Assembly: GCA_937996535.1 (NCBI GenBank)
Contig: CALKVF010000077.1
Coordinates: 1,352 to 65,351, forward strand
From: an uncultured Novosphingobium sp.
Lineage (GTDB): Bacteria; Pseudomonadota; Alphaproteobacteria; Sphingomonadales; Sphingomonadaceae
Length of the DNA stretch: 64,000 nt
Direction of reading: 5' to 3'
Shown here: positions 2,234 through 61,616 of the stretch, piece by piece
How positions within the stretch are numbered: position 1 is the stretch's first letter
Layout: the number at the start of each line of letters is the position of its first letter
Notes under the pieces: model-generated
Database searches by the model: none
The model's input: only the letters and a program-made list of their open reading frames with translations
Told to the model about the DNA's origin: nothing
Made by a program: the position numbers and the translations under genes

Positions 2234-2334
2234 GCGGCCCAATCCTCACCTATGGAATCCCCTAAGACCAAGGCGATGCCACAAGTCGGGCGGCAAGGGA
2301 AAGGGGCAGCCGTGCCGCGCCCGTTCCAAATGGT

Positions 2335-3027: not shown

Positions 3028-3065
3028 CGATGTATCTCCTCGATCACGATTGCATTGGGCGCGGA

Positions 3066-4634: not shown

Positions 4635-4638
4635 CGCC

Positions 4639-5496
4639 TTACTGCCCCTCGAACACCGGCTTGTAGGCCGCCGGATCGGGATTGGCGAGCCACATGCCGA
4701 GCGCGTTCTTTACGTCCTCGCTGTGGATCACCTTGCCCAGTTCGATGCTTTCGAGCGCGAGGAAATCGCGCTGCCCCTGATTGGTGCCAAAGTTCACCAG
4801 CGTCTTGACCCCGCGCAGCGCGAGCGGCGCGCGGGCGGCCATGTTGGCAACGAACGCGGCAACGTCGGCATCAAAAGTTTCGGGCGCATAGAGCCGGGAG
4901 ATGAGGCCCAGCTCAAGCGCCTTGGCCGGGGGCAGGAATTCACCGTGCAGCAGCACGTCGAGCGCCTTGGCCCGGCCGAGCAGGCGCACGCAGTGCCACG
5001 CCCCGCCGCCGCCGGGCACCAGCCCGAAACTGGTCTGCGGCAACGCAAAGCTGCCTTCGGGGTGATCCATCATCAGCCGGAAATCGAACGACAGCGAAAA
5101 TTCGCACCCGCCCCCGCCAACCACGCCGTTGATCGCCGCCACCGTCACCGCCGGCAGGTTCTGGATGCGCAGCGCCAGTTCATGGATGCTGCTCATCGAA
5201 GAGGGGATTGCGCGGGTGATTTCGAGCAGTTCCTCCGCGCGCGAAGGCCCGCCATCGGCCCCTTCGCGGCGGCCTTCGGCATGGTCCTGCATTTCGTTGA
5301 GGTCCATCCAGCGCAGGAACACCCCGTTCTCACCCGTGACCAGGAAGACTCGCACCGAAGGATCGCTCTCGATCTCGGTGAGCAGGGTGTGCAGTTCGGC
5401 CAGCATCCGCGAATTGAGCACCTGCAGCGGCGGATTGCTCATCCGGCAGGTAACGACGTGGCCTTCGCGGCTGACATTGAGATGGCGGTAGTCCAT
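4639..5496 (-). CDS. Enoyl-CoA hydratase/isomerase (crotonase) family protein, atypical
   Basis: TVAAINGVVGGGGCEFSLSFDFR, FGLVPGGGG; start MDYRHL after GAGGAG. Confidence 0.85.
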   Translation of the reverse strand: MDYRHLNVSREGHVVTCRMSNPPLQVLNSRMLAELHTLLTEIESDPSVRVFLVTGENGVFLRWMDLNEMQDHAEGRREGADGGPSRAEELLEITRAIPSSMSSIHELALRIQNLPAVTVAAINGVVGGGGCEFSLSFDFRLMMDHPEGSFALPQTSFGLVPGGGGAWHCVRLLGRAKALDVLLHGEFLPPAKALELGLISRLYAPETFDADVAAFVANMAARAPLALRGVKTLVNFGTNQGQRDFLALESIELGKVIHSEDVKNALGMWLANPDPAAYKPVFEGQ

Positions 5497-5573
5497 CGGC
5501 GGCGCTCCTCTCGATCCGGACCGCTCGGGCGGCCTCTGGTGCATGGTGGACAGTCATGCGCTCCGCGATTAAT

Positions 5574-5588
5574 GTCAATTAAATTTAC
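5574..5588. promoter_or_regulatory. GTCAA-N5-TTGAC-type operator (GTCAATTAAATTTAC)
   Basis: Palindrome variant shared with other intergenic regions of the catabolic island; sits between divergent genes. Confidence 0.55.
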
Positions 5589-5684
5589 CGTTTGAACGAT
5601 GCCAGTTGATGATTGACAGGTTCGCCACGATCACGGCAATCGCATCGGCCTAACAGATTGACAGAAATGGGAAGAGACAAGCCA

Positions 5685-6107
5685 ATGGCCAAGACCCTGA
5701 CGACGCAGACCATCTCCAACGAACTGGCCGAAACGCTGATGCGCGGCGCCGTGGCCAAGGCCGAGGCGATGGGCGTGCCGATGTGCATCGCGATCTGCGA
5801 TCCTTCGGGCGCGCTGGTGCAGTTCCTGCGGATGGACCGCGCCGCCCTGCTCAGCGTCAACATCGCGCAGGACAAGGCCTATACTGCCGTCTCGTTCGGC
5901 ATGGCGACCCACGAATGGCACGATTTCATCAAGGACGACGCGCCGCTGCTGCACGGCATCGTCCACACACCGCGCCTGGTGGTGTTCGGCGGCGGCTATC
6001 CGATCAAGGTCGATGGCGAAGTGGTCGGCGGGATCGGGGTCAGCGGCGGACACTATAGCCATGACATGGAAGTCGCGCTGGCCGGTCTCGCCGCCGCCGG
6101 GCTCTGA
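5685..6107 (+). CDS. GlcG/HbpS (DUF336) heme-binding protein
   Basis: FLRMDRAALLSVNIAQDKAYTA, GGGYPIKVDGEVVGGIGVSGG. Confidence 0.9.
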   Translation: MAKTLTTQTISNELAETLMRGAVAKAEAMGVPMCIAICDPSGALVQFLRMDRAALLSVNIAQDKAYTAVSFGMATHEWHDFIKDDAPLLHGIVHTPRLVVFGGGYPIKVDGEVVGGIGVSGGHYSHDMEVALAGLAAAGL

Positions 6108-6111
6108 TCCG

Positions 6112-6768
6112 TCAGACCAGCAAACCGCGCACGATCAGGTCAGCCGCGCTGGCGATCGTGCGCGATAGCGCCTCGGGCTCGCTGCTCAGCCGCTCGTCGA
6201 CCGCCTCGACCAGCGGTCGCAGAGCCACCAGCGCGCCCGCGCCGTGGGCCAGCAGCGTGAACGGCACCGTGATGTGGACATCGCGGAACACCCCCTGCGC
6301 GCGGCCTTCCTCCAGCATCGTCGCGATCGGCCAGGTTCGCGCGCGAAAGAAGGTTTCGACGATATAGTCGAGCCGCTCGCTGCGCCGCGCGCCTTCCACG
6401 TTCATCAGCTGCACGATCGCCGGAAAAGCGGCCACGGATTCGAGGAAATCGACGCAGGCCGCGTGCAACCGGCGCTCTACCGCGGTGTCACCGGCGAGGC
6501 CGCGCTGCGATGCGACCATGCGGTCGTGCAGCCGTCCCATGCCGTGATCGACCGCGGCCATCCACAGGCCCAGCTTGGTCCCGAACCGCGCGTTGAGCAG
6601 TCCGTGGCTGATCCCCAGCGATGCCGCGATCTCGCGGATCGAGGCGCCTTCGAAGCCGCGTTCGGCAAAGGCTTCGAGCGCGCGTTCAAGGCAGGCCTCG
6701 TCGGCCACCGGGGGCTGGTCGGTATGGGCCGGTCGGCCGGGCCGGCGGCGATGGGTAAGCGCAGTCAT
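6112..6768 (-). CDS. TetR/AcrR family regulator
   Basis: ALEAFAERGFEGASIREIAASLGISHGLLNARFGTK HTH. Confidence 0.88.
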   Translation of the reverse strand: MTALTHRRRPGRPAHTDQPPVADEACLERALEAFAERGFEGASIREIAASLGISHGLLNARFGTKLGLWMAAVDHGMGRLHDRMVASQRGLAGDTAVERRLHAACVDFLESVAAFPAIVQLMNVEGARRSERLDYIVETFFRARTWPIATMLEEGRAQGVFRDVHITVPFTLLAHGAGALVALRPLVEAVDERLSSEPEALSRTIASAADLIVRGLLV

Positions 6769-6822
6769 CCTGCCCCTCTAGCACAGATGCGAAAGAATAA
6801 TTAGACAATCGGATATTTATTG

Positions 6823-6858
6823 GTCATCTGCGTTGACGAAATCATCAAGGGAGTTGAC
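6823..6858. promoter_or_regulatory. Two tandem GTCAA-N5-TTGAC-type operators (6823-6837 GTCATCTGCGTTGAC; 6844-6858 ATCAAGGGAGTTGAC)
   Basis: Each has one mismatch to the island consensus; the second overlaps the RBS of the monooxygenase. Confidence 0.5.
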
Positions 6859-6859
6859 G

Positions 6860-8011
6860 ATGCCCGCCACCCACGCCGAACTGGTTGAACGCGCCCGAGC
6901 CCTCGCCCCGGCGATCCGCGCCCGCGCCGCAGAGGCCGCCGCCTTGCGCAAACCCGTCGACGCCTCGATCCAGGATCTCATCGATGCCGAACTGATCCAG
7001 ATGTTCGTTCCGAAGCGTTGGGGCGGCTCGGAAGCCCCGCTCGCGGCGATGATGGACGTGGTCGAGATCATCAGCGCGGCCTGTCCGTCCACCGGGTGGA
7101 TCACCGCCTTCTACATCAGCCACAACATATACGTCGCCAAATTCGCCGAGGCGGTGCAGGAGCAGTTGTTCGGCCCGCGCGGCTATGTCCTGCTGCCGGC
7201 CGCGTCCGCTGCCGATATGGAGGCCCGCAAGGTCGATGGCGGCTGGGAAGTCAGCGGCCGGGCGGCCTGGGGCTCGGGCGTAATGCACGCGGATTGGGTG
7301 CTGATGAGCGGCAAGGCCGAAGACGGCCCGCGCTCGTTCCTGATGCCGATCGACGCGGTCGAAGTGCTTGATACCTGGCACTTTGCCGGTATGGCCGGGA
7401 CCGGCAGCAACGATTATGTCGCGCGCAGCGTGTTCGTGCCCGATGCCCACGCGATCACCGCTGGCGAGTTCCACGGCGGCGCAACCGAAGGCTCAAGACT
7501 GCACGCCAACCCCTTGTTCTCGATCCCGTTTCTGGTGTCAGCTTATTGCACGATCCTGCCGGTGATCACCGGCAGTCTCAAGGGCATGATGGGCGCCTAT
7601 GAAGAGATGATCGACAAGCGCGTGCGCAATTTCAGCGGGGTCGTGCTCAAGGATCAGCAGACCGCGCACACCACACTGGGCCAGCTGCAAATCGAAACCC
7701 GCGCGGCAGGCGAACTGGCCCGCGCGGTCTATGACCGGGCTGAAGGCGTGCTGGCCGCGCGCCCCTTCACCACCGACGACCGGCTCCACGCCAAGGGCCA
7801 GACCGCCTTCACCTCGCGCCACTGCCGCGAGACGGCCAACCGCATGATGGCCGCGGCCGGTGCATCAAGCTTCCACGAGGGCCAGCCGCTCCAGCGCATC
7901 TGGCGCGACATCAACACCGTCTGCTCGCACGCGTTCTGGGATTGGGACGTGTCGTGCGAGCAAACCGGGCGCCAGCATCTCGGCCTGCCGCTGACCCACC
8001 CGCTGGTCTGA
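6860..8011 (+). CDS. Flavin-dependent monooxygenase, acyl-CoA dehydrogenase fold (HsaA/C2-like, group D)
   Basis: ELVERARALAP, FVPKRWGG, ACPSTGW, WGSGVMHADW, DTWHFAGMAGTGSND, LQRIWRD. Confidence 0.85.
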   Translation: MPATHAELVERARALAPAIRARAAEAAALRKPVDASIQDLIDAELIQMFVPKRWGGSEAPLAAMMDVVEIISAACPSTGWITAFYISHNIYVAKFAEAVQEQLFGPRGYVLLPAASAADMEARKVDGGWEVSGRAAWGSGVMHADWVLMSGKAEDGPRSFLMPIDAVEVLDTWHFAGMAGTGSNDYVARSVFVPDAHAITAGEFHGGATEGSRLHANPLFSIPFLVSAYCTILPVITGSLKGMMGAYEEMIDKRVRNFSGVVLKDQQTAHTTLGQLQIETRAAGELARAVYDRAEGVLAARPFTTDDRLHAKGQTAFTSRHCRETANRMMAAAGASSFHEGQPLQRIWRDINTVCSHAFWDWDVSCEQTGRQHLGLPLTHPLV

Positions 8012-8028
8012 CCGGTCACCCCTTAGTT

Positions 8029-8079
8029 GACAATGAAGTTGACAAACATCGGGTTTGAGTTACCGTCAACATAATTGAC
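8029..8079. promoter_or_regulatory. Two GTCAA-N5-TTGAC operators upstream of the TonB receptor (8029-8043 GACAATGAAGTTGAC; 8065-8079 GTCAACATAATTGAC, perfect)
   Basis: Read directly in AT-rich intergenic DNA. Confidence 0.6.
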
Positions 8080-8121
8080 GCGAAGAAGCTGACAATCAGC
8101 TCTGTCATGGGAGGGAAGAGG

Positions 8122-10299
8122 ATGCACAAAACTCATCGTTTGATGCTTGGAGTCGCGGTCTCGGCAATCGCGCTGACCAGCGGCGGACAGGCCTTCGCGC
8201 AGGACACCGGCAGCCAGGGGCTCACCGAAATCGTGGTCACCGCGCAGAAGCGCGAAACCAAGCTCGAAAAGACCCCGATGACCATCAACGTCATCAGCGG
8301 CGATGAAATCGCCTCGTCGGGCATCGTCGAAATCAAGAGCCTGGCGGCGACCGTGCCTGGCTTCACCATGAACGAGTCGCCCGGCGGGCTCAGCGGCGTG
8401 GCGCTGCGCGGCGTCGGCACCTCGGCGGGCAGCCAGGTGTTCGAACAGTCTGTCGGCCTGTTCGTTGACGGCATCTACCACCCGCGCGCGCGCCAGTATC
8501 GCGATGCGCTGTTCGACGTTGAACGCGTCGAAGTGGTCAAGGGCAGCCAGGGCGTGCTGTTCGGCAAGAACACCAGCGTCGGCGCGGTCAGCGTGATCTC
8601 GCGCGGGGCGGGTTCCAAGACCGGCGGTTACCTGCAGGGCACGGTCGAGGCCAATTACGGCAGCTACGGCTTCGAAGGCGGGGTCGACGTTGTCGCGAGC
8701 GACACCTTCAAGGCCCGCATCGCCGGGATGTTCGATCACCAGAACGGCTTCGTCCAGAACGTCACGCTGAACCGCAAGGAAGCCAATGGCGACCGTTACG
8801 TGGTGCGCGGCGTGTTCGATTTCACCCCGACCGAAGCACTGAGCCTGCGCGCCAAGGTGCAGTTCAGCAAGCTTGACCAGGTCGGCAACAACTTTGAATT
8901 CATCGCCAACCAGAACGTCACCGCCCTGCAGGGCCTGGGCGTGGTCGATGGCGGCTTGAACGACTATGTGAAGTACGAAAGCGCCGGCTCGTTTGGCGAC
9001 GCGCTCGACTGGCAGAAGGGCCAGGATCACTCGCTTGAAATCAAGTATGATCTGGGCAACGATTTCACGCTGACGGCGGTGTCGGGCTACACCAAGTTCG
9101 ACTTCAACAACGGGTTCGATTCAGACTCGACCCCGGGCACGCAACTGTTCTCGCACTTCAATGAAAAGTTCGACCAGTTCACCCAGGAAGTGCGCCTGAC
9201 CTCGCCGGGCGGGCAGCCGCTCGAATATATCGTCGGCGGGTATTACCTGCACTCGACGGTGCACTACAACTACCTGAGCTACTACAACAACTTCCCGGTC
9301 GCGGGCGGGCTTTACGGCACCACGTCGCAGCGCTTCAACCAAACCGAGAACACCTTCGCCGGGTTTGGCCAGGCCACCTGGCACATGGCTGACAACCTGC
9401 AGCTCAATGTCGGCGGGCGCCTGACCAGCGACAAGAAGGATGCCGATTACCAGAAGTTCCTGCTCAGCGACGGCGGCCGTCCGACCGGGCTGGTGGCGCT
9501 GCTGGGCAATGGCCCCTACCACGCGGTCAACGTGAAGGATGACACCTTCGATTTCTCCGGCACGCTGAGCTACAACCCCACGCCCAGCTCGACGCTCTAC
9601 GTCTCGGCCGGGCGCGGCAACAAGGGTTCGGGCTTCGTCAACCAGGCGGCGCTGGCCAATCCCTGGCCGGCCACCTTCCTGGTCCCGGTGGAACGCGTGA
9701 CCACCTATGAAGCGGGCTTCAAGGGCCGCGTCCTCGATGGCCGCGTCTATCTGTCGCTTGCCGCCTATCACATGGACATCAAGAACTTCCAGGACAGCTT
9801 CTACAACTCGACCGCGCGCGCCTTCCAGGTCCGTTCGCTCGATGCGAAGAGCACCGGGTTCGAAGCCGAAACCCAGATCAAGTTCAGCGATGCGATCACC
9901 GGCTATGGCAACCTGTCGTGGACCCCCCATGCCAAGCTCGCCAATGGCGAACGGATGCAGCGTTCGGCGCGGTTCAGCTCGACCATGGGCCTGCGTTACA
10001 AGTACGAGCTGTCCGACAGCCTGACCCTGTCGGGCTTTGGCCAGTGGCTGCACTCAACCTCGATGCTGCACCAGCCGGCCTCGGCCCCGGGCGACAACTG
10101 GAGCCACCCCTACGACCTGCTGAGCGCCCGCATCCAGCTCACCTACGAGCCCGCGCGCCTGAGCTTCTTCGTCAACGGGGCGAACCTCTCCAAGCAGGTT
10201 TACCGCACCTTCTCGTTCGGCAGCCCGCTCGGCCTCGGCCAGGTTGGCGCGCTCAATGATCCGCGCACCTTCACCTTCGGGATCCGCAAGGAATTCTGA
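8122..10299 (+). CDS. TonB-dependent receptor
   Basis: Signal peptide (AFA/Q), EIVVTAQKRE TonB box, DVERVEVVKGSQGVLFGKNTSVGAVSV plug motif, PRTFTFGIRKEF with terminal Phe. Confidence 0.95.
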   Translation: MHKTHRLMLGVAVSAIALTSGGQAFAQDTGSQGLTEIVVTAQKRETKLEKTPMTINVISGDEIASSGIVEIKSLAATVPGFTMNESPGGLSGVALRGVGTSAGSQVFEQSVGLFVDGIYHPRARQYRDALFDVERVEVVKGSQGVLFGKNTSVGAVSVISRGAGSKTGGYLQGTVEANYGSYGFEGGVDVVASDTFKARIAGMFDHQNGFVQNVTLNRKEANGDRYVVRGVFDFTPTEALSLRAKVQFSKLDQVGNNFEFIANQNVTALQGLGVVDGGLNDYVKYESAGSFGDALDWQKGQDHSLEIKYDLGNDFTLTAVSGYTKFDFNNGFDSDSTPGTQLFSHFNEKFDQFTQEVRLTSPGGQPLEYIVGGYYLHSTVHYNYLSYYNNFPVAGGLYGTTSQRFNQTENTFAGFGQATWHMADNLQLNVGGRLTSDKKDADYQKFLLSDGGRPTGLVALLGNGPYHAVNVKDDTFDFSGTLSYNPTPSSTLYVSAGRGNKGSGFVNQAALANPWPATFLVPVERVTTYEAGFKGRVLDGRVYLSLAAYHMDIKNFQDSFYNSTARAFQVRSLDAKSTGFEAETQIKFSDAITGYGNLSWTPHAKLANGERMQRSARFSSTMGLRYKYELSDSLTLSGFGQWLHSTSMLHQPASAPGDNWSHPYDLLSARIQLTYEPARLSFFVNGANLSKQVYRTFSFGSPLGLGQVGALNDPRTFTFGIRKEF

Positions 10300-49727: not shown

Positions 49728-51821
49728 TCAGTGGCCGCCGAGCGCGGTGAGCAGGGGCGCCAGATTATCCGCATGGGCGCGCCAGCGCCCGGCCGAGGTC
49801 TTGTAGACCGGCTGGCGCACCTGATTGACGCTGGCGGTGCGGACCGGACGCTTGGTTTCGTGGAAGGCAAGGCAGGCCGGATCCCAGGGCAAGCCGAGGA
49901 AATCGAGCATCCGCCGCGCCTGGGTTTCGATATCGCCGATCACGTCTTCGTAATCGACCTCAAGCAGGTGCGAGGCGGGAACCACATCGCGCCAATGGGC
50001 CATCAGCGCCTGATAATCGCGGTGGAAGCGGCCAAGCTCGGCCATGTCGTAGGTGAACGACTGTTCCCCCCCGAACAGCTTGGAATAGCATGACAGGCAG
50101 GTATCGACCGGATCGCGCCGGGCGTGGATGATCCGGGCCTTGGGCAGGATCATCCGGATCAGCCCGACATACATGAAGTTGGCGGGCATCTTGTCCACCA
50201 CGTGCGGCTTGTCGCTGGCAATGGCCGCCACGGCGGAAAGGTAGGCATCGCCCATTTCGCGCAGCCGGTCGGCTGTCATGCCGACCAGCGCATCCGGCAT
50301 TCCGCCATTTTGATCGGCCAGCCGGCTGAGGAACTTCAGCTCGCCCGCCCCGTCGATCGCGGGATGCGAGGCAAGGATCTGCTCGATCAGCGTGGTCCCC
50401 GATCGCGGCATCCCGACAATGAAGATCGGTGACGACGAGGGCGCACCCGCCCCGGCAAACTGTTCGAGCAATGCGGGCGAAAACGCCTCTGCCAGCCGCC
50501 CGAGCCAGCGGCTGACCGCATCGGGATCATACTGAATGGTCGAACGCTTCATCGCGTTGCCTTCGTTCAGGTGGCGGAACGCGGCATCGGAATCGCCGGT
50601 ATCGAGGAAGGCCTTGCCCAGCGCGAAATGCAGGCTCATCCGATCGGAGAACGACTGCACCCCGCCCGGCCCCGTCAGGTCCTGCATCTTGGCGATCGCG
50701 GGATCGCCCGCCTTGAACTTCACGATGTCCGCGCGGCCATGGAGCGCCGCGGCCGAATCCGGAAATTCGGCCAGCACCGCATCCAATTGACGCAGCGCAT
50801 CGGCGCTATCGCCGTTCTCCTGAAACGCCATCGCCCGCCCCACCAGCAAGCGCTCGCGAATGGCGCTCGGCACGCTCAGCGCCAGATCGAAACAGGCAAT
50901 CGCTTCGTCAAACCGCCCCAGCGCCAGCAAGATCGAACCATAGGCGCTCTGGACCTCGGCATTGTCGGGGCGCAGCTTGGCCGCGCGCTGCGCATCGCCC
51001 AGCGCCTCGTCGAGCTGGTCCATTTCCTTGAGCGAACTCGCGCGCGACGCGAGCGCCACCGCATGGTCGGGCGCGATCCGGAGCAATGCGTTGAGCCAGC
51101 CGATCGCCGCGGCATGGCGCCAGCGCGCCGTCTCGGTCGCGGCAAGGTTGATATAGGCATCGTGCAAGCCGGGATTGAGCCGAATCGCGCGCTGCCCATA
51201 GTCCATCGACAGGTCATACTGGCCCTGTTCCTTGCACAGGCTGGCAAGGTTGGAATAGGGCTCGGCATAGTTGGGATTGAGCGCCAGCGCGCGCTGCCAG
51301 TGTTGCTGCGCGCCCGCGATATTGCCCAGCCGCTTGCAGGTGTTGCCCAGGTTGTTGTGCGCGCTGGGATTGCGCGGATCGAGCGCGACCACCTTTTCGA
51401 GGCAGATCAGGCTTTCATCCAGCTGGCCGCTTTCCTGCAGGATGATCCCCAGGTTGTTCCAGGCGCCGATCATTTGCGGGTCCAGTGCAACCGCCTTGCA
51501 GCCGTGCACCTCAGCCTCGGCCAGCCCGCCCTGCCGGCGCAGCATTTCAGCCAGATTGCTGTGATAGAGCGCCGCTGCCGCCGGTGATTGGCAGGCCTGA
51601 CGCAGCAGCGCCACCGCCCGCACCTGATCGCCCATGGCATGAGCCATGAGCCCGAGCATGTGCAAGGCATTGGGTTCGCCCGGAACATTCGCCAGGATCT
51701 GCCGGCAGATCGCTTCGGCCTGCTGCGCGTTGCCGGCGTTGAGATGGGCTTGGGCCTGCTCCAGTCCCTGCCGGACCGCCTGGATGGTCTGCGGGGAAAG
51801 AGGGGCGCTATTCGTGTTCAT
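49728..51821 (-). CDS. TPR-repeat-containing PAPS-dependent sulfotransferase
   Basis: About 440 aa of TPRs (AWNNLGIIL, AHNNLGNTC, PYSNLASL); 5'-PSB loop PIFIVGMPRSGTTL, VDKMPANF, 3'-PB motif IIHARRDPVDTCLS, TASVNQVRQP. Confidence 0.93.
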   Translation of the reverse strand: MNTNSAPLSPQTIQAVRQGLEQAQAHLNAGNAQQAEAICRQILANVPGEPNALHMLGLMAHAMGDQVRAVALLRQACQSPAAAALYHSNLAEMLRRQGGLAEAEVHGCKAVALDPQMIGAWNNLGIILQESGQLDESLICLEKVVALDPRNPSAHNNLGNTCKRLGNIAGAQQHWQRALALNPNYAEPYSNLASLCKEQGQYDLSMDYGQRAIRLNPGLHDAYINLAATETARWRHAAAIGWLNALLRIAPDHAVALASRASSLKEMDQLDEALGDAQRAAKLRPDNAEVQSAYGSILLALGRFDEAIACFDLALSVPSAIRERLLVGRAMAFQENGDSADALRQLDAVLAEFPDSAAALHGRADIVKFKAGDPAIAKMQDLTGPGGVQSFSDRMSLHFALGKAFLDTGDSDAAFRHLNEGNAMKRSTIQYDPDAVSRWLGRLAEAFSPALLEQFAGAGAPSSSPIFIVGMPRSGTTLIEQILASHPAIDGAGELKFLSRLADQNGGMPDALVGMTADRLREMGDAYLSAVAAIASDKPHVVDKMPANFMYVGLIRMILPKARIIHARRDPVDTCLSCYSKLFGGEQSFTYDMAELGRFHRDYQALMAHWRDVVPASHLLEVDYEDVIGDIETQARRMLDFLGLPWDPACLAFHETKRPVRTASVNQVRQPVYKTSAGRWRAHADNLAPLLTALGGH

Positions 51822-51906
51822 GACCAGAGGCTGCTTTTCAAACGGAACGGTTCTCTAGAACAAGCCGGCGCGCGATCAAAGCGCGCGTCCCTTGCCCGAA
51901 ACGATA

Positions 51907-51948
51907 ATGCGCCCCCTTCCCCATCCTCAGATGCGAAAGGGGGCGCAT
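51907..51948 (-). terminator. Hairpin after the autotransporter gene (weak U-tract)
   Basis: ATGCGCCCCCTT/AAGGGGGCGCAT stem with inner CATC/GATG; followed by UAUCGUUUC on the minus strand. Confidence 0.6.
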
Positions 51949-54013
51949 ATCCAGCACCATTGGCGTGCGGTCAGAACCCGAACTGCAGGCCCGCGGTGAC
52001 GTTGGCCACGGTCATGCTGCTGTAGGCTTCGCTGCGGAAGTTTGCCCCCAGGCTGATCTTCGCCGCCGGAGCGATCGCATAGGCCAGCTGCACTTCACCG
52101 CGTCCGCGCAGTTTGCGGGCCTCGGCCGTATTGGCCAGCGCGAAGATTTCGAGATCGGGAATATCGCTGGTCCCGGCAAAGCTGGTGGCCTTCGATTCCA
52201 GATCGTATTCGATCCCGCCGCCGATCTTGTAGCTCACCGAACCGCTCAGCGCGCCGCTCAGGCTCAGGCCGGCAAGGCCGGTGGTCTGGCGCTGGCTGTA
52301 GGCGGCGTAGCTGACCGGGAATTCAACCCCTTCGCGCAGCGTTTCGCTGTACCCGCGCCGGCCGGCATAGCCATAGCGCACCCCGATATAGGGCATCAGG
52401 CGGGCCTGCTGGGCAAGGTCAAAGGCGTAGCCCGCCTCACCGCCGATCGCCCAGGTCTTGAGCCGCGACGAGCCAGCGCCCGCTTCGGTGTCCTGCAAGG
52501 TCGCCAGGCGCGCAATCGCCACGTTTTCGGCATGGTAAACCCCGGACAGGCGCAGCTGGAGCCCCATCCCGTTGACCTTCTGGCCAAGACCGATGAACCC
52601 GCCGAACATCGGCTGTTCACCCGTCGAGGCAATCTGACCAAGCTGGTTCGACTGGTGCACCGTATAGTCGACGAAAGCGCCAACCCGGATCGTCGGCGTG
52701 ATGCGATAGGCGGCCGTGACCACCCCGGCGACTTCATCCTTCTGGCGCAGGCTGGAATAGCGCACGCTGGCCGACAGGCAGACGCCGCCCTGGCTGAAGC
52801 TGGTGCAATCATTGCCCAGCGCGCCAGCAACAGTGGCCGCCCGGTTGCGCAGCGCGATCAGCACCTGATCCCGGCTAAAGCCAAGCGCCCGCAGCGAATT
52901 GGCCGCATCCGGTCCCAGCCGGGCAATGATCAGATCCCAGTTGGTTCCCGACGTGTTGCTGAGCATCCAGCGGAAATTGCTGAACACGCCCTTCACCGTG
53001 CCATCGACCGCGGTCACCCCGGTCAGGACATTGGCATAGGTGCCCAGCGCAAGCGTCGAATCCGAGGTCAACGAGAACGAGGTCAGCGTGCGATCGGTGC
53101 CGGTATAGGCCAGCTGGCCATACTGCGCCGCCGAAATCACCTGTTCGACATAGTTCGTGGGCAGGCTGCCCGCGAAGGTCAGCGCAGCGCCCGCGCCGCC
53201 GCCCTGGGCGTTGATCAGCGTGCTGATCGTGCCGCTGTTGTAGATCCCCGCCGTGCCGCCACGGATGGTGCCGGTGTTGGTGAGCGTGGTGACCGTGCCC
53301 GCGGTGTTGTAAAGCCCATAGGCCGACCCGGTGATCGTGCCGCTGTTGCTGACCGAGGCGACCGTGCCCGAGGACTTGTTCCAGATGGCATAGGTGGTGC
53401 TCGATCCGCCCACCGTGCCGCTGTTGCTGAACGCAGTGATCGCGCCACTGTTGACGATGCCGTTGGCCGAACCGGTGATCGTGCCGCTGTTGGCCAGCGA
53501 TGCGATGCTGCCCGCGTTGGCAAGGCCGGCATCGACCCCGCGGATCGTGCCGCCGCTGGCATTGGTCAGGGTGCGGATCGTGCCCGAGGCCGCGTTCCAG
53601 ATACCATCGGTGGTGGCGGTGCCGCCAATCGTGCCGCTGTTGGTCAGCGTGGTGAACAGGCCGGAGTTGTAGATCCCGTCAAGCGCGCCATCGACGCTGC
53701 CGGTGTTGGTCAGGGTGGTGACCATCCCGGTATTGTTGATGCCCTTGCCGGCGCTGCTGGTGATCGCGCCGGCATTGGCCAGCGATGCCACGATGCCCGC
53801 ATTGGCGAGGCCCGCATCGACGCCGCGGATCGTGCCGCCGCTGACGTTGGTCAGGGTACGGATCGTGCCCGCCGCGGCGTTCGAGATGCCGGTGCTGGTC
53901 GAAATCCCGCCAATCGCGCTGTTGTTGGTCAGCGTGGTCACCGTGCCGCTATTGGCAAGGGCCGAAGCGGCGCCGGTGATCGTGCCGCCATTGGTCAGCG
54001 TGCCGATCGTGCC

Positions 54014-54577
54014 GAGATTGTCGATACCGTTGACCGATCCCGCAATCGCACCGCCGCTGGCGTTGGTCAGCACCGCGATATTGCCGGCAGCCTGGTTCCA
54101 GATGCCGTGCTGGCTGGTCTGGCCGCCGATCGTGCCGGTGTTGGTCAGCGCCGAGATCGTTGCCGCGTTGTCGACCGCCTTGCTCGCGCCGGTGATGGTC
54201 CCGGCATTGCCGAAGGTGGTGATCGTGCCGCTGTTGCTGAGGCCGATGGTGCCGCCAGCGATGCTGCCCGCGTTGCCGAGCGTGCCGATCGTGCCCAGAT
54301 TGTCGAGCCCGTTGACCGAGCCGGCAATCAAACCGCCGCTGGCGTTGGTCAGCGCCGCGATGTTGCCGGTCGCGCGGTTCCACAGACCATACTGGCTGCT
54401 CTGGCCGCCGATCGTGCCGGTGTTGGTCAGCGCCGAGATCGTCGCCGCGTTGTCGACCGCCTTGCTCGCGCCGGTGATGGTCCCGGCATTGCCGAAGGTG
54501 GTGATCGTGCCGCTGTTGCTGAGGCCGATGGTGCCGCCAGCGATGCTGCCCGCGTTGCCGAGCGTGCCGATCGTGCC
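54014..54577. repeat. Tandem 282-bp (94-aa) duplication inside the passenger domain
   Basis: 54119-54295 and 54401-54577 are near-identical (one mismatch seen). Confidence 0.85.
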
Positions 54578-57500
54578 GGCATTGCTGAGGCCGATGGCCC
54601 CGCCGGTGATGCTGCCCGCGTTGGTCAGCGTGGTAATTCGGCCCGCGTTGATCAGCCCGTCCACGGTGCCGGTGATGCTGCCCGTGCTGGCATTGGTCAG
54701 GGTGGTGACAACACCCGACGTGCGGTTGGAGAAGCCGCTGGCACTGTTGGTGCTGCCGATCAGCGCATTGTTGGTCAGGCTGGCGATGGTGCCGGTGTTG
54801 TCGATGCCGCTGGTCAGCCCGGCGATCGTGCCGGCATTGGTCAGCGTGTCGAGCGCACCTTCGTTGAGGAGGCCTGCCGTGTAGCCGGTGATGTTCCCGC
54901 TGGCACTGTTGGTCAGCGTGGTGATCGTGCCGTGCAGCTTGTTCCACACGCCGCTGCCCATCGCATCGCCGGTGATCGAGCCGTTGTTGATCAGCGTGGT
55001 GAGGGTTCCGCCATTGGCCAGGCCATCGCTGCCGCCGTGGACCGTCCCGTCATTGGTCAGCGTGGCGATCTGGCCATCGTTGGTGATCCCGGTCACCACG
55101 CCCGAGATTTCGGCGCCCGCATCATTGGTCAGCTGGGTGATGACCCCGCCAGCGCTGTTGCGGATGCCGTCGAACACTGCAGTCCCGCTGATCGTGCCGC
55201 TGTTGGTCAGGCTGGTGATGGTTCCGGCATTGGCCAGACCAAAGCTGCTGCCGCTGATCAAGCCGCTGTTGGCCAGCGCATCGATCGTGCCGTGGTTGTA
55301 GACGCCGGTATGCGCGCCGACGATCGTGGCGCCCAGGGCATTGGACAGCGTGTTGATCGTGCCACCGGTCAGGTTCGACAGGCCGGCGTTGGCCGCGAGG
55401 CCGCCGATGCTGCTGACGTTGGTGACGGTGTTGATCGTCCCGGCGTTCGTCAGCGAGCCGATGATGCCTTCGTTGTAGATACCATAGGTGCCGCCGTGGA
55501 TCGTGCCGCTGTTGGTCAACGTGATGATCGCACCGCTATTCCAGATCGCGGCACTGTTGCCGGTGATGCTGCCGCCGGCGTTGTTGGCAAGCGTCGCGAT
55601 GCTGCCGTCGCCTGTGTTAAAGATGCTGGAATAATCGGTGGTGTGGATTGTGCCGCTGTTGCTCAGCTGATCGATCCGCCCATCGTTGTAAATCGCCGCG
55701 GTAATGCCGCTGATCGTCCCGCCCGACCGGTTGTCGAGCAGACCGATATAGCCCTGCCCCTGATTCCAGATCCCGTCGGCATAATGCAGGCTATCGATCG
55801 TGCCGGTGTTGATCACAGTGCCGATGATGCCGCTGTTGACAATGCCGGTGTAGGCTGCGGTGATCTCGCCCGAGTTGTTGAGCGTGGTGATCGTGCCGCC
55901 GCTGTGATTGAACAGGCCGACATAGTCCGTCGCGCTGAGCGTGCCGCTGTTGGTCAGCGTGCCGATCATGCCGTCGTTCGAAACCCCGACGTTCCGTCCG
56001 GTGATCGTGCCGCTGTTGGTCAGCTTATCGATCTGGCTGATGTTGCTGAGACCAGTGCTGGTGTTGAGGTTGGTGCCGATGATGGTCCCGGCGTTCATGA
56101 GCGCGCCCAGCGTGCCCTCGTTGCGCAGGCCATAGACCGTGCCGCTGATCGTGCCGTCCGCGCTGTTGGCCAGCGAATTGATCGAGCCGCCATCCCGGTT
56201 GCGGATGCCATATTCGCTGTAAGCCCCGCCGATCGTGCCGCTGTTGGTCAGACCGCTGATGGTGCCAATGTTATCGATGCCACGGCCCGCAGTGGCGGAG
56301 GTGCCGCCGCTGATCGTGCCGCGGTTGGTCAGCGTGCCGATTTGGCCGTCGTTATAGATCCCGGCGGTAACCCCGCTGATAATGCCAGTGGCATTGTTGG
56401 TCAGGTCGCCAATCACGCCGCTCTGGACGTTCCAGATGCCATCGTAATAGGCATCGCCGCTGATCGTCCCGTTGTTGATCAGGGTGGCAATACCGCCATA
56501 GTTCGTGATCCCGATGCTCGACCCGCTGATGGTGCCCGAGTTGGTCAGCGTGATGATCTGGCCGTCGGCATTGTTGTAAATGCCGCTCCACCCGCCGTGG
56601 ATGACGCCGCCGGACTCGTTGGTCAGATCGCCGATCGACGCGAGATTATAGATGCCGCTGCCAGGCGGCGTACCGCCAACGCCGCCGCCGGTGATCGTTC
56701 CGCTGTTGCTGAGCGTGGTGATCCCGCCCTCGTTCTTGAGGCCATAGCTCGAACCGCTGATCGTTCCGCCAGCAGCGTTGCTCAGGAGGGTAATCGTACC
56801 GGTGGCGTGGTTGAAAATGCCAAGGGTTCTGGTGCTTCTGGTTGTGCTGCCGATGGTCCCGCTGTTGGCCAGCGTCCCGATCAGACCTTCGTTGTAGACG
56901 CCGGCCGTCGGCCCTGAAATGGTGCCGCCGGCACTGTTGGTCAGCGTAGCGATTTCGCCAGTACCCGTATTCCAGACACCGTCGTAATTGCTGCCGGAGA
57001 TAGTCCCGCTATTGGTCAGCGTGGTGATCTGGCCGTCATTGGCAAGGCCCACGCTGCTGCCCGAAATGACGCCGTTGCCGCTATTGTCGATCGCGCCGAT
57101 GTGGCCGTTATTCCAGATGGCCGCGTTGATCCCGGTGATGCTGCCGCTGTTGCTGAGGGTATCGATGGTACCCGTGCCCATATTCCACAGGCCGTTGAAG
57201 GCAGAAGTGCCGCTCAAGGTGCCGCTATTGGTCAGCGTACCAATCGTTCCCGAGTTCAGCACGCCAAACGCCGGGCCAGTGATCGTCCCGCTATTGGTCA
57301 GCGAGGTGATCGTGCCTTCGTTCAACACAGCAGTCGCCGAGCCAGTAATCACGCCGGCATTGTTCAATGACGAGATATTCCCGTCCGCCAGGTTGCGCAG
57401 ACCGGTGGCGGTCGACACGTTGCCGATCCGGCCGTAGTTCATGACCCCATCGAGCGGGCCCGTGATCGTTCCGTCATTGGCAAGCGTGGTGATCGTGCCG

Positions 57501-58820
57501 TAGTTGATGATGCCGTAGGACGCGGTGCTGCTGATCAGCCCGTGGTTGGTCAACGTCCCAATCGCGGCATTGTTGTAGATGCCCGCTGAAACCCCGGAAA
57601 TGAAGCCGGACGCCTCGTTGGTCAGCGTGTTGATCACGCCGTTGTTGAGGTTCCAGATACCATCATAGCTGGTCGTGGCTTCAATGGTGCCGCTGTTGAT
57701 CAGCGTGTTGATCGTACCGCTGTTGGCAACGCCCGTCTCCCCGCCGCTGATGAGGCCCGCGTTGGTCAGGGAATCGATCGTTCCCTCGTTGTTGACGGCG
57801 TACTTGACCGAACGGATCACCCCGCTCGTATCGTTGAGCAGGGTGTTGATCGTGCCACCGCCCATGTTGTTGATGCCATATCGATTGGTGGCATCGGTAC
57901 CGATGGCATTACCAATGGTGCCGGTATTGGTCAGCGTATCGATCAGCCCGTTGTTGGCCAGGGCATCGCCGGTGCCGGTACCGGCCGTGATCAAGCCCGC
58001 GTTGGTGAGCGTGGTAATCTCGCCTTCGTTGGAAACCCCGATGAAGTTGCCGCTGATAACGCCAGTGCTGGTGTTGTTCAGCTCCGTGATCGTGCCACCC
58101 CCGAAGTTCCAGATACCATGGTCACTGTTAGCCCCCCCGATCGTCCCGGAGTTGGTCAGCGTACCGATCGTGCCTCCGCTGCCGATACCGTGTGTGATGC
58201 CGCTGATGGCTCCGCCAACGTCGTTGGTCAAAGTGGTGATGATGGCATCCGGGTTATTCCAGATGGCAACGCTACTGTTGGTTCCACCAATCAGTCCGGT
58301 ATTGGTGAGGGTGCCGATCGTGGCCCCACCGAGGTTGTTGATCGCGGGCGCGGCATTGACAGTATTCAAACCGCTAACGCCGCCACTGATCGTCCCGGTA
58401 TTGGTCAACGTGGAGATGGAGCCTTCGTTGAAGATACCGGCAGTGACACCGGATATGACGCCCCCCGCGTTGTTGGTCAGGCCCCCGATAAAGCCAGCGC
58501 CGTGGTTCCAGATGCCAGAGTAGGACCCGGTGGATTCGATCGTACCGCTATTGGTCAGCGTCGAGATCGTGCCTTCGTTGTCGATGCCGGATTGACCGCC
58601 CGAAATGACGCCGGTGGACGCGTTGATCACGTTATCGATCGTTGAGCCACCCCTGTTCCAGATGCCGTAGGCCCAGTCACCGGAGATCGTGCCGCTGTTG
58701 GTCAGCGTGGTGATCGCACCATCGTTCTTAACGCCAGTATCAACGCCCGACAGCGTTCCGGTGCTCGTGTTCGTGAGCGTCGTGACCGTACTGCCACTGG
58801 GCATCACAACTGCGCCGATT

Positions 58821-58827
58821 CCCCCCC
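58821..58827 (-). repeat. G7 homopolymer tract at the frameshift junction
   Basis: Minus strand ATC AC GGGGGGG AATC GGC GCA; G6 or G9 gives a continuous ORF. Confidence 0.85.
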
Positions 58828-59204
58828 GTGATCGTGCCGCTGTTGGTATAGGTGCCAGTCGAAACCGTCACGGGGCCGGTGCAGTTCACGCTGTTGCCGC
58901 TGGTGCTACAGGCCGCCGCCTGGGCTGACGATACCGGCACCACCATCATGGCCGCGGCAAAGGCAATCGCCGACGAACCGCTCGACAAGGCCACAATGCG
59001 CCCGCGCTTGGCGTTATTTGCTGAATTCGTCATCGTGCCCCCGACCAGATTTTGCTTAAATGAAACGTCAGATCTGATCGTCGCGACCGCGCTGGATCAG
59101 CCCTTCGGCCTGACCGCGAGGGGGGTGGATGCGGGGCATTGGGGAGAACCCAGGCGCTGCACTGCCGACCTCATACGCGCATCATGCGTCAGATAAGGTG
59201 GCCC

Positions 59205-59400
59205 TATTTGCATCATAATATGATTTCAATAAGTGCAATCACATATAACATATGACTCTAATTGCATCTTACATTGCATCATTATGATATATATGCAGAT
59301 TTCCTGAGGAAATTTGCCCGCAGAAGCCTATTCGCCTGGGGGATTGCCCGGTTTTTCATATTACATTATGATGACCATCAGCTTAGTTCTGATATCGAGC
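59205..59400. promoter_or_regulatory. AT-rich divergent promoter region with repeated TTGCATC and ATCAT..ATGAT motifs
   Basis: TTGCATC at 59208, 59262, 59274; CATTATGAT at 59280, 59364; ATTTCCT-G-AGGAAAT at 59299-59313. Confidence 0.5.
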
Positions 59401-59514
59401 AATTTTGTGCCCGCGCGGCGGAAATCCTGCTCTGTCTTGCCGGGCTACCAATTTGACCGGCAGCCCACCGATAGTGCAGCTGCCCCGGCCCTGTGTTCGG
59501 GATACTTGAATTCG

Positions 59515-60219
59515 ATGAGCGTTACCGTCAGCCACAACATCTGCGTCATTGACGACGATGAGGAATACACGCTCTTCGTGCGCCGCTACCTCTCGTCGGT
59601 GGGCCACACGGTGCGAGCCTATACCACCGCGCAGGAATTTCTTGCCGATGCAGAGGCACTGAACTGCGACATATTCCTCGTCGACCTGATGCTGCCCGGG
59701 ATGGACGGCATTGACCTCGTTTCGATGATCCGCGCCAATGGTGATGCCGGGATCATCGTGGTCAGCGGCCGGATGGGCGCCGATGCCTTTACCACGGCCC
59801 TTGCCGCCGGCGCCGACATGTTCGTGAACAAGCCGGTGCGCGCTGATCAGATCGCCCAGGCCATCGCCTCGCTGAGCCGCCGCCTGGCCCCCGGCACCGC
59901 GAGGCGCGACGTTCCCTGGTCACTCGATTGCACCAAGGGCGTGCTGACCGCGCCGGGCGGCGATGAAATCAAGCTCGGCCCATTGGAGCAGCGCATCGTG
60001 ATCGCGCTCGCTCAGGCTGCCGACAAGGGCCGCTCGCGCGCCGAACTGGCGCAAATCGCCCAGGTGGCCCCCAGCGCCGATGATCGCAATCTCGACGCCG
60101 CGATGTTCCGGCTGCGCCGCAAGATCGAAAGCGCCACCGGCAAGCCCTCCCCGATCATCACCATGCACGGCAAGGGCTATGCGGTGACCGGGACCATCGA
60201 ACTGGTCAATCCGGCGTGA
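59515..60219 (+). CDS. OmpR/PhoB family response regulator
   Basis: VIDDDEE, LVDLMLPGMDG, VSG, NKPV; wHTH NLDAAMFRLRRKIE..IITMHGKGY. Confidence 0.92.
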   Translation: MSVTVSHNICVIDDDEEYTLFVRRYLSSVGHTVRAYTTAQEFLADAEALNCDIFLVDLMLPGMDGIDLVSMIRANGDAGIIVVSGRMGADAFTTALAAGADMFVNKPVRADQIAQAIASLSRRLAPGTARRDVPWSLDCTKGVLTAPGGDEIKLGPLEQRIVIALAQAADKGRSRAELAQIAQVAPSADDRNLDAAMFRLRRKIESATGKPSPIITMHGKGYAVTGTIELVNPA

Positions 60220-61616
60220 TCCTGATGCTCGATGTCCGGACGATCCTCTGGATCTTCTGGGCCGTCATCATTTCCTTCACGCTGGGAATGCTGCTGCTGC
60301 GCACCGATCGCATCTGGTCGGGCACCTATTACTGGATCGCTGGCAACGTCACCTCGATGTTTGCGATCACCACCCTGCTGTGGATGCAGACGGTGCCGTT
60401 TTCGGCCAAGCTCAATGTGGTCCCCGACACGATGGTGCTGGTCGCCAGCATGTTCAAGGTCTTGTCACTCAGCGGGAAGCACCAGCGCGCGCGATCCGCG
60501 CTGCTGGGAGCCGCGCTGATCGCCGGGTATATCCTGGTGGCCCGGACCTTGGACGCATTGACCGCCGTTAACCTGACCCTGGGCGGCGCGGGGGTGGTCG
60601 CAGCGATAATCGCGGGCTGGCAGGCCTATCTGTGCTATCGCTCACCGCGCTGGCGCAGCCTGAATGGCAGCGGCCTGTTCGCGGCAGCCGCCATGGTGAT
60701 CTGCCTGTACTACATCGCTGCCGGCGTTCGCGGCTTCAACGTGCAGGACGGGCGCTACCTGTTTCAGCAAAGCGGGCTTGCTCAGGCCAACCTGATCATT
60801 TCGCTGGCCTATTACATCATCTGTCACATCTGCCTGATCGCGATGCTGGCGGCCCGGCTGAGCCGCTCGATGGTAGACAGCCAGATGCGCCAGCGGCGGC
60901 AGATCAACCTGACCCGCCAGGCCGAACAGCACGCCTTGGAAATGGTCGCGCAGGCGAATGAAAAGCAGGCGTTGCTCGACGTGCTGGCCCACGAAGTGCG
61001 GCAGCCGTTCAACAATGCCCAGGCCGCCTTGAACGATGTGCTGATGACGCTGCACAGCAACAGCCCCGACTATGCGGCCGGACAGCGACTCCAGGCAATC
61101 ATCGACCATATCGTGCTGTCGCTATCCAATGCGATTGTCGGCTCCAGCATGCTGGAGCGCAAGACGCAGTCGCTGATGGCCACCACCGATGTCGTCGCGG
61201 TGTGCGAACTGGCCTGCAGCGACATGGGGCTGAACTGGCGCAACCACGTCGAGCTTGAACTGGGCGAGCGCGCCATCTTTACCGAGGCCGACCCGATCCT
61301 GCTGCGCCTGGCGATCCGCAACCTGCTCGACAATGCGCTCAAGCACTCGCAACTGGGCCGCAAGGTCAAGCTTCACGTCGGCGTTGATGAGGCGTTGATG
61401 CGGGTCGCGATCACCGTAACCAATTGGCCTGCAACCGAGTTCGCCCCCGATCCCGCCTTGTTCGAGCGCGGCGTGCGCGGCAAGCAGGCGGCGCCTGAAA
61501 ACAAGGGCCTGGGACTGTTCATCGTCAGCGAAGTGGCCGTGCTCCACCACGGCGAAGTGCAAAACCGGGTCGACGAGCACGGCTGCACCGAATTCAAGCT
61601 GCTGCTGCCGGCCTGA
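60216..61616 (+). CDS. Membrane-bound sensor histidine kinase (about 7-TM input domain)
   Basis: H-box LAHEVRQP, N-box RNLLDNALKH, F-box LFERG, G2 GLGLFIV; GTGA overlap with the regulator. Confidence 0.9.
   Translation: MILMLDVRTILWIFWAVIISFTLGMLLLRTDRIWSGTYYWIAGNVTSMFAITTLLWMQTVPFSAKLNVVPDTMVLVASMFKVLSLSGKHQRARSALLGAALIAGYILVARTLDALTAVNLTLGGAGVVAAIIAGWQAYLCYRSPRWRSLNGSGLFAAAAMVICLYYIAAGVRGFNVQDGRYLFQQSGLAQANLIISLAYYIICHICLIAMLAARLSRSMVDSQMRQRRQINLTRQAEQHALEMVAQANEKQALLDVLAHEVRQPFNNAQAALNDVLMTLHSNSPDYAAGQRLQAIIDHIVLSLSNAIVGSSMLERKTQSLMATTDVVAVCELACSDMGLNWRNHVELELGERAIFTEADPILLRLAIRNLLDNALKHSQLGRKVKLHVGVDEALMRVAITVTNWPATEFAPDPALFERGVRGKQAAPENKGLGLFIVSEVAVLHHGEVQNRVDEHGCTEFKLLLPA

Follow-up and report, generated by a model that had tools for sequence, protein, structure and literature searches.

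A tyrosylprotein-sulfotransferase-like enzyme with a tetratricopeptide-repeat arm is linked to autotransporter genes in several bacterial classes and may sulfate their passengers

Does a sulfotransferase gene that lies directly downstream of a giant autotransporter gene serve to modify the autotransporter? The question is raised by a 64,000-nt stretch of contig CALKVF010000077.1 from an uncultured Novosphingobium sp. (assembly GCA_937996535.1), which we call the window. In it, a gene for a 697-aa protein composed of tetratricopeptide repeats (TPRs) and a sulfotransferase domain is co-oriented with a gene for a repeat-rich autotransporter. An earlier note, made from the sequence without database searches, had proposed that this enzyme sulfates the autotransporter passenger, or a glycan on it, before export. 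Functional coupling of the two genes is well supported by our analysis, and we consider it likely. Our preferred explanation, to which we assign a probability of about 0.5, is that the 697-aa protein is a cytoplasmic protein sulfotransferase that depends on 3'-phosphoadenosine-5'-phosphosulfate (PAPS), is dedicated to the upstream autotransporter and sulfates its passenger directly.

The catalytic domain of the enzyme (residues 465-697, nt 49731-50429) belongs to the Sulfotransfer_3 family (PF13469), which matches residues 465-648 over profile positions 1-216 with 166.4 bits against a cut-off of 27. The 5'-phosphosulfate-binding (5'-PSB) motif is GMPRSGTT (470-477) and the 3'-phosphate-binding (3'-PB) motif is RRDPVDTCLS (568-577). 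Among 38 homologs, G470, P472, R473, G475, R569, D573 and S577 are invariant, and so are E494, K544 and S664. A phmmer search of PDB sequences with the full-length protein gives the tyrosylprotein sulfotransferases (TPSTs) TPST1 and TPST2 as best matches (E about 1e-7, 21-24% identity), and in these alignments R473, E494, K544 and S664 coincide with the TPST catalytic residues, whose roles we take to be those assigned to Arg, Glu, Lys and Ser in the structures of TPST2. N-terminal to this domain, about 11 TPRs occupy residues ~10-383; together with the linker helices, which reach residue 454, they are encoded by nt ~50460-51794. The protein has no signal peptide.

The full-length AlphaFold (AF2) model has a predicted local distance difference test score (pLDDT) of 91.6 and a predicted TM-score (pTM) of 0.86; in it, about 11 TPRs are joined by a helical linker to an alpha/beta catalytic domain. 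The best PDB fold matches of the TPR part are two enzymes that modify proteins, O-GlcNAc transferase (OGT) and SPINDLY. Since a Foldseek search with the full-length model returned TPR proteins only, the catalytic domain was modelled separately (pLDDT 89.6). PDB fold matches at ranks 1-13 are then all TPSTs (tick TPST, human TPST1 and TPST2; TM 0.63-0.67, E 6e-11 to 5e-9), followed at lower ranks by polyketide sulfotransferase domains, mycobacterial Stf proteins and heparan-sulfate 3-O-sulfotransferases. In sequence and predicted fold the enzyme is closest to the TPSTs, with its catalytic residues intact, and the combination of a TPR fusion with a TPST-like fold suggests a protein substrate.

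The mechanism we propose begins in the cytoplasm, where the OGT-like TPR superhelix would hold the unfolded repeat passenger while the TPST-like domain moves sulfate onto passenger hydroxyl groups. The modified passenger would then be exported by Sec and the beta-barrel, yielding a negatively charged surface fibre. Modification before export is suggested by analogy with Aah/TibC and HMW1C. The likeliest acceptors would be loop tyrosines just before the conserved G-I-(W/Y/F)-N strand, for instance that of S-Y-D-G-I-W-N; both the passenger as substrate and tyrosine as acceptor are points that we infer. The broader proposition that many Proteobacteria O-sulfate passenger tyrosines in the cytoplasm by means of a TPR-guided, TPST-like enzyme is tentative, and we would put it somewhat below even odds.

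The earlier note had suggested a survey of gene neighbourhoods as a check on the linkage, and three surveys were made. For the first, 41 related genomes were searched separately for the enzyme and for the autotransporter beta-domain (PF03797). This gave 75 and 72 matches, respectively, and only three adjacent pairs, namely that of the window and those of its two best full-length homologs, in genomes G006 (50% identity) and G015 (37%). In both homologs the enzyme gene follows immediately after an autotransporter gene (2413 or 1683 aa) and has the same orientation. The genes flanking the G006 and G015 pairs are unrelated to those of the window and to one another.

The second survey covered 61 loci of species-representative genomes, using an iterated hidden Markov model (HMM) of the beta-domain, reading of open reading frames (ORFs) and confirmation with Pfam. 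Iteration and Pfam confirmation were required, since the initial model missed divergent barrels such as that of L041. The enzyme has an autotransporter no more than 1.5 kb away at loci L003, L004, L005, L006, L008, L009, L010, L011, L012, L014, L032 and L041. PF03797 scores above its cut-off in 10 linked autotransporters, two from another survey and eight from this one (L003, L006, L008, L010, L011, L014, L032 and L041); L012 was recognised by the HMM only. The linked loci come from Acetobacteraceae, other metagenome-assembled genomes (MAGs) of Rhodospirillales, Thalassospira, Cohaesibacter, a Rhodobiaceae MAG and Desulfobulbales-type MAGs. Arrangements vary: the autotransporter can be upstream in the same orientation, downstream, divergent or convergent.

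The third survey used a different database, in which 5543 homologs at E <=1e-60 were found among the candidates scored. The best 120 of these are 53-87% identical to the window enzyme and, where named, come from Acetobacteraceae, Magnetospirillum, Telmatospirillum and Herbaspirillum. Ten homologs with 55-66% identity were looked up. Six have an adjacent autotransporter, and a seventh probably does (an unannotated, divergent gene of 1547 aa is adjacent).

In a tree of 106 catalytic domains, the window enzyme falls into a clade of nine, starred in the tree, with a Shimodaira-Hasegawa-like approximate likelihood ratio (SH-aLRT) support of 97. Eight of the nine are linked to an autotransporter and the ninth (L007) is cut by a contig end, so that all eight members with readable context have an autotransporter within 1.5 kb. 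Six more linked loci lie outside this clade. A second starred clade, comprising L011, L012, L014 and L041, is linked in all four members once the L041 barrel is recognised. No member of the two large clades (about 75 rows) is linked. Paralogs from the same genus and the second copy in the window genome fall here, as do tandem pairs of Steroidobacteraceae and other Gammaproteobacteria. The caution in the earlier note that TPR-sulfotransferases are common is borne out, with up to 10 copies per genome in the genus, most of them not beside autotransporters, and about 90 unlinked paralogs in the tree. The autotransporter-linked enzymes are confined to particular clades.

The size of this family bears on a different account of the locus, according to which the enzyme acts on lipopolysaccharide, exopolysaccharide, a small molecule or another protein, and adjacency merely reflects co-transfer or co-regulation of surface traits. 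Such an enzyme would be at home among the many copies that lie away from autotransporters, some of them next to apparent TonB-dependent receptors (L015, L016) or polysaccharide genes (L085), and the three close homologs without a nearby autotransporter, as well as a hairpin between the two genes of the window (see below), also fit. Nevertheless, the linkage is specific to particular clades and persists in several orders and classes even where orientation, gene order and flanking genes have changed. At a Magnetospirillum-type locus, L108, the gaps between genes are only 6-11 nt, and the TPR fusion and TPST-like fold speak for a protein substrate. We regard this account as quite unlikely. Linkage is thus kept in many genomes whose flanks and orientations differ, and since there are few autotransporters among the thousands of genes of each genome, adjacency across such changing contexts is beyond chance: it cannot be accidental.

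The usual module has a third member, which the earlier note overlooked. The autotransporter-sulfotransferase pair that it described is present in the window, but in eight of the nine members of the window's clade a gene of about 390 aa with similarity to glycosyltransferase family 9 (GT9) adjoins the sulfotransferase gene, often with overlapping stop and start codons, and the same gene occurs at six of the 10 looked-up loci. Its product combines a short TPR array with a C-terminal domain whose matches to the heptosyltransferase family GT9 are weak but consistent, both in Pfam (Glyco_transf_9, 24 bits, cut-off 22) and with the heptosyltransferase III/I models of NCBIfam. A profile search of the PDB with the whole protein was swamped by TPR proteins, and the catalytic part alone gave insignificant heptosyltransferase matches (E about 0.2). 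The G006 locus is flanked by HldE-like and haloacid-dehalogenase-type (HAD; GmhB-like) genes, which could supply ADP-heptose. No GT9-type gene was found at the window locus, and the profile of the partner gave TPR matches only when run against the window genome (88% complete).

These partners raise the possibility that the enzyme sulfates a sugar first added to the passenger by the glycosyltransferase, giving a sulfo-heptose-type modification, and that the window is a remnant without its acceptor. The frequency of the GT9-like gene, its weak heptosyltransferase matches, the HldE-like and GmhB-like flanks of G006, the FkbM methyltransferases that often follow and the absence of the gene from the window locus and genome are all in line with this, although the genome is 88% complete and loss of the glycosyltransferase is therefore unproven. 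However, each of the two enzymes has its own TPR array, suggesting that each recognises the protein itself, and the sulfotransferase domain is nearest to protein-tyrosine, not carbohydrate, sulfotransferases. Moreover, the GT9-like gene is lacking within 10 kb at no fewer than seven linked loci (at least L002, L010, L011, L012, L014, L032 and L041) and in the window, so the link between sulfotransferase and autotransporter is independent of a glycan-adding partner. Sulfation of a glycan is the chief competing explanation, and we consider it unlikely. Taken together, the TPST-like fold and the loci with the sulfotransferase alone favour direct sulfation of the protein.

The composition of the passengers offers some indication of the acceptor. 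Linked passengers are richer in tyrosine than those of 20 unlinked autotransporters from related genomes (median 3.1% versus 1.9%) and reach 8.8%; in the sulfotransferase-only clade, tyrosine accounts for 4-8.8%. The three passengers of L014 (4429-9762), L041 (1443-9563) and L011 (1987-8247) contain 4.4-8.8% tyrosine and repeats such as ...AYAYAYG[IV]... and DAYG[IV]. The motif Y-G-[IVLM], which places a tyrosine right before the G-I-x-N strand, is common in linked passengers (2.4 per 1000 aa) and nearly absent from the controls (0 per 1000 aa, excluding one of the 20 rows, L103, which proved to be a wrong frame), a comparison in which the motif was defined after viewing the data and the rows are related, such that common descent alone may explain it. 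In the window, nine of 41 tyrosines are in Y-G-[IVLM] (counted in the protein minus its last 300 residues), and others precede this position by one or two residues, often with an Asp neighbour (S-Y-D-G-I-W-N, for example). We take these patterns as suggestive of a tyrosine acceptor. We favour tyrosine, with Ser/Thr or a sugar as possible alternatives.

The earlier note put the autotransporter at about 2350 aa, a size that requires a frameshift to be bridged: its frame is broken in the assembly, and this had been overlooked. As assembled, the main ORF has 2278 codons and runs for 6.8 kb without a further stop or frameshift. The C-terminal 409 aa carry a PF03797 beta-domain (E 3.2e-15; 57 bits, cut-off 26) and close with ...LQFGF, which has an aromatic last residue; a Pfam and NCBIfam scan of the whole 2278-aa protein gave no match, and PF03797 was found only when this segment was scanned by itself. 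The passenger of about 1900 aa is rich in Gly, Thr, Ser and Asn and is built from repeats of 20-25 residues of the type ...TLTNSGTISG...GI[W/Y/F]N..., which in translation look like a beta-helix; Pfam gave no match to a passenger family. It is 42% identical to the passenger of the Magnetospirillum-type autotransporter. Two tandem units of 282-285 nt within the passenger gene (53474-54577) are 93% identical, which points to recent repeat expansion.

A separate N-terminal ORF encodes a Sec-type signal peptide (basic n-region, hydrophobic core and ...SSAQA/AA) followed by the first repeat. This ORF leaves the main frame after codon 70 at a run of seven G residues (G7), where there is a +1 frameshift as assembled. 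A G6 in place of the G7 would join the signal-peptide segment of 75 codons to the main ORF in a single frame of 2353 codons, which agrees with the size given before. Hence, in the assembly, the signal peptide is out of frame with passenger and barrel, in contrast to a type Va autotransporter. Runs of at least seven G or C occur only five times in the 64-kb window, two of them within the 5' 700 nt of the autotransporter gene, and the same-genus autotransporter of G006 has a G7 run, in frame, some 35 nt past the start codon (L001 4676-4682). None of the listed Logan contig pieces covers the G7 run of the window. At another locus, L110 (10388-13826), the autotransporter that follows the sulfotransferase is annotated as two genes (681 and 484 aa) that overlap, and it may be another frameshifted one.

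Phase variation, decay or an error of assembly could each underlie the frameshift. A locus that is inactive or decaying, with a pseudogene autotransporter and an orphan sulfotransferase, or a frameshift that is merely an error of the MAG assembly, would account for the different frames of signal peptide and passenger, for the missing glycosyltransferase that is usual in the clade, and for such a break in a MAG of 120 contigs and 88% completeness. Yet the other 6.8 kb of the autotransporter gene are free of stops and frameshifts, and the sulfotransferase retains every invariant residue. A change of a single base in the homopolymer restores the frame, as happens in phase-variable surface genes, and the G006 homolog also has a G7 run, which there is in frame. 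Decay or assembly error appears rather improbable to us. The window system is a reduced form that consists of autotransporter and sulfotransferase only and is switched off, as assembled, by the G7 frameshift.

The two genes are separated by 149 bp, in agreement with the approximately 150 bp and the shared orientation reported before. RNA folding of this spacer gives a minimum free energy of -71.9 kcal/mol (z -3.95; none of 200 shuffles as good), and the hairpin that had been raised earlier as a caveat is indeed strong. It is long and GC-rich (about 51903-51951, minus strand) and is followed by only a weak U tract; the spacer also contains a second, short GC stem. A scan for consensus terminators did not call the spacer hairpin. 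It could be a partial terminator or attenuator, or an element that stabilises the mRNA.

It should be noted that several observations weigh against direct sulfation of the passenger. The reading frame of the autotransporter is broken in the assembly, and the hairpin parts its gene from that of the sulfotransferase. Three of the 10 close homologs looked up have no autotransporter within 8-10 kb. Likeness to the TPST fold does not fix acceptor specificity, and the next folds are those of polyketide and carbohydrate sulfotransferases. Since a TPR/GT9-like glycosyltransferase is adjacent in eight of nine members of the window's clade, the usual acceptor could be a sugar. The tyrosine content of the window passenger is an ordinary 2.1%, and the Y-G-[IVLM] motif was chosen post hoc. 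Sulfation of the autotransporter passenger is thus a function that we infer from sequence.

Among known systems, the closest analogy is the bacterial autotransporter heptosyltransferase (BAHT) family. Aah/AIDA-I and TibC/TibA comprise a cytoplasmic enzyme, encoded beside the autotransporter, that modifies the passenger repeatedly before export (PMC4358343). The window enzyme resembles these in being a soluble cytoplasmic protein encoded beside a repeat-rich classical autotransporter, and most relatives of the locus also carry the GT9-like (heptosyltransferase-like) gene. In contrast, the donor here would be sulfate from PAPS instead of heptose from ADP-heptose, and the substrate would be captured by a fused TPR superhelix instead of a dodecameric ring with an iron-finger. 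As the window lacks a glycosyltransferase, it is not a member of the BAHT family.

The closest catalytic relatives are the TPSTs. Like TPST1/2 and RaxST, the enzyme has a catalytic domain of the Sulfotransfer_3 family; like TPST, it keeps the 5'-PSB and 3'-PB motifs and the catalytic Arg, Glu, Lys and Ser, and has TPSTs as its best folds. It differs from the TPSTs in its N-terminal TPR array and linker of about 450 residues, in its cytoplasmic rather than Golgi-lumenal location and in an identity of only 21-24%. RaxST, too, is not known to carry a TPR array. Protein tyrosine sulfation in bacteria is exemplified by RaxST of Xanthomonas, which acts on RaxX (PMC4646787). Whereas RaxX is a short peptide that leaves the cell by type I secretion, the presumed substrate here is a passenger of 2000 residues that looks like a beta-helix. 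A RaxST/RaxX-type system would have a secretion transporter beside the sulfotransferase, and there is no ABC (ATP-binding cassette) transporter or HlyD gene at 47.6-61.6 kb of the window.

In architecture, OGT and SPINDLY are closest, with a long N-terminal TPR superhelix that recruits substrates and a C-terminal transferase domain, although the catalytic domain is a P-loop-type sulfotransferase here and a GT-B glycosyltransferase there. FlmG is a bacterial TPR-fused protein glycosyltransferase of similar architecture. Iyer et al. (2010) predicted operons of sulfotransferases and PAPS synthetases that modify co-encoded surface proteins, namely collagen-like and tail-collar proteins (PMC2938197); these operons centre on 2-oxoglutarate dioxygenases that would hydroxylate the substrate first, and the description does not extend to autotransporters or TPR fusions.

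A full-text literature search found no description of a sulfotransferase-coupled autotransporter, in keeping with the earlier note, which had known of none. To our knowledge, the only dedicated modification known for autotransporter passengers is glycosylation (Aah/TibC, and HMW1C for a two-partner adhesin), and bacterial protein sulfation is known for a single small peptide, RaxX. On our best reading, what is new here is a dedicated autotransporter-modifying enzyme with a new chemistry and a new mode of substrate recruitment. If correct, the passenger would be the first bacterial surface adhesin known to be sulfated, and the system would be only the second for protein-tyrosine sulfation in bacteria after RaxST/RaxX and would add a third chemistry of autotransporter modification beside O-heptosylation and N-glycosylation. 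The occurrence of a conserved TPST-like enzyme with a TPR arm by autotransporters in several classes points to a widespread, unstudied surface modification. Sulfate esters would alter the charge and hydration of the fibre, its adhesion, its recognition by phages and its binding of metals, and the system might also allow sulfated proteins to be made in the bacterial cytoplasm by simple means.

The genome behind the window is a MAG of 2.5 Mb in 120 contigs, in which we find one autotransporter and two TPR-sulfotransferases. Sulfotransferase, autotransporter, response regulator and histidine kinase all lie where they had been placed before (Table 1). A convergent gene for a Crp-family regulator lies 7 bp past the sulfotransferase gene, and the other neighbours are a fatty-acid hydroxylase, the autotransporter and the two-component pair. 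Among public runs, only Logan contigs from freshwater and wastewater metagenomes contain portions of the stretch (share <=0.20), and no RNA run is listed; one of these, from a strain with about 97% identity, spans the start of the sulfotransferase gene and the end of the autotransporter gene. At the very start of the window ends a gene with an adenosine-5'-phosphosulfate (APS) kinase domain (G000:C77:927-1376; window 1-25). Its open frame of 479 aa probably encodes a CysN/C-type protein, and it lies about 50 kb from the sulfotransferase gene on the same contig.

Table 1. Features of the autotransporter-sulfotransferase locus (window coordinates)
Feature	Position	Strand	Remarks
TPR-sulfotransferase	49728..51821	-	697 aa; Pfam Sulfotransfer_3 E 1.5e-48 and many TPR families
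Intergenic spacer, autotransporter stop to sulfotransferase start	51822..51970	-	149 bp; RNA fold
Autotransporter main reading frame	51971..58807	-	2278 codons; PF03797 at 52040-52723
G7 homopolymer (C7 on + strand)	58821..58827	-	Parting point of signal-peptide frame and main frame
Autotransporter N-terminal ORF with signal peptide	58740..59033	-	97 codons as assembled
AT-rich divergent intergenic region	59034..59514		Autotransporter to response regulator; GC 0.52, direct repeats
OmpR/PhoB-type response regulator	59314..60219	+	Response_reg, Trans_reg_C
Sensor histidine kinase	60216..61616	+	HATPase_c

The two-component pair, which had been counted as part of the system, is divergent from the autotransporter across the AT-rich region noted before (GC 0.52 at 59000-59499, about 0.65 around it). 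The response regulator matches Response_reg (9e-21) and Trans_reg_C (3e-10) in Pfam, with all NCBIfam matches below their cut-offs. Its ORF opens at TTG 59314; as the receiver domain begins only at residue 76, the true start is probably the ATG near 59515. The kinase gene overlaps the stop of the regulator gene by 4 nt and encodes a multi-span membrane N-terminus and a HATPase_c domain (Pfam, 1.4e-10), with NCBIfam sensor-kinase families below cut-off. Pfam HisKA has no match in the kinase, in which an H-box-like HEVRQP can be seen by eye.

The divergent region contains three copies of (A/T)TTGCATC (window 59199-59280), two of which are exact and 12 bp apart (59261 and 59273). This spacing would suit an OmpR-type regulator, and from their sequence the copies could be a binding site for the adjacent one. 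One promoter-like site lies on the plus strand (59344-59372). Local regulation of the autotransporter by the pair is a guess. No homologs of the regulator or kinase lie beside the autotransporter-sulfotransferase pair in loci L001-L081, where the nearest regulator match is a weak one about 4 kb from the pair in L012; a single analogous pair is found in L108, and its regulator is just 28% identical to that of the window over the portion of the receiver domain that allowed comparison. We find no support for counting the two-component pair as part of the module.

The L108 locus (860-9641, Magnetospirillum-type, on a JGI contig) shows the fullest gene order: autotransporter, IalB, TPR-sulfotransferase, TPR/GT9-like, FkbM methyltransferase, hydrolase, CysD and CysN/C. 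Its genes overlap or are separated by 6-11 nt, and this tight packing puts the PAPS-synthesis genes in one string with the autotransporter and the enzyme. The divergent OmpR-type regulator and kinase lie upstream of the autotransporter. FkbM-methyltransferase genes are frequent in linked modules. A small secreted IalB-like protein (PF06776) is also recurrent (L082 7177-7869, L083 9455-9991, L003 11138-11791, L004 6119-6772, L007 3685-4338, L009 14064-14717 and L034 9941-10540); none was found in the window.

Other TPR-sulfotransferases are found in further gene contexts. Locus L013 (2384-12250) lacks an autotransporter. Next to an unannotated repeat protein it has type I secretion ABC and HlyD genes, a TPR-sulfotransferase and a protein in which FkbM-methyltransferase, TPR and GT9-like parts are fused, a context suggesting that the enzymes also serve type I secreted proteins. 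Another TPR-sulfotransferase clade (L015 259-8405, L016 6746-17653) lies beside TonB-dependent-receptor-like proteins of about 1000 aa that have a signal peptide and a C-terminal ...RF(R/K)M. The TPR-sulfotransferase of L085 is located by polysaccharide genes, and in L034 a 1516-aa protein with an OmpA-like C-terminus adjoins a double GT9-like gene and the sulfotransferase.

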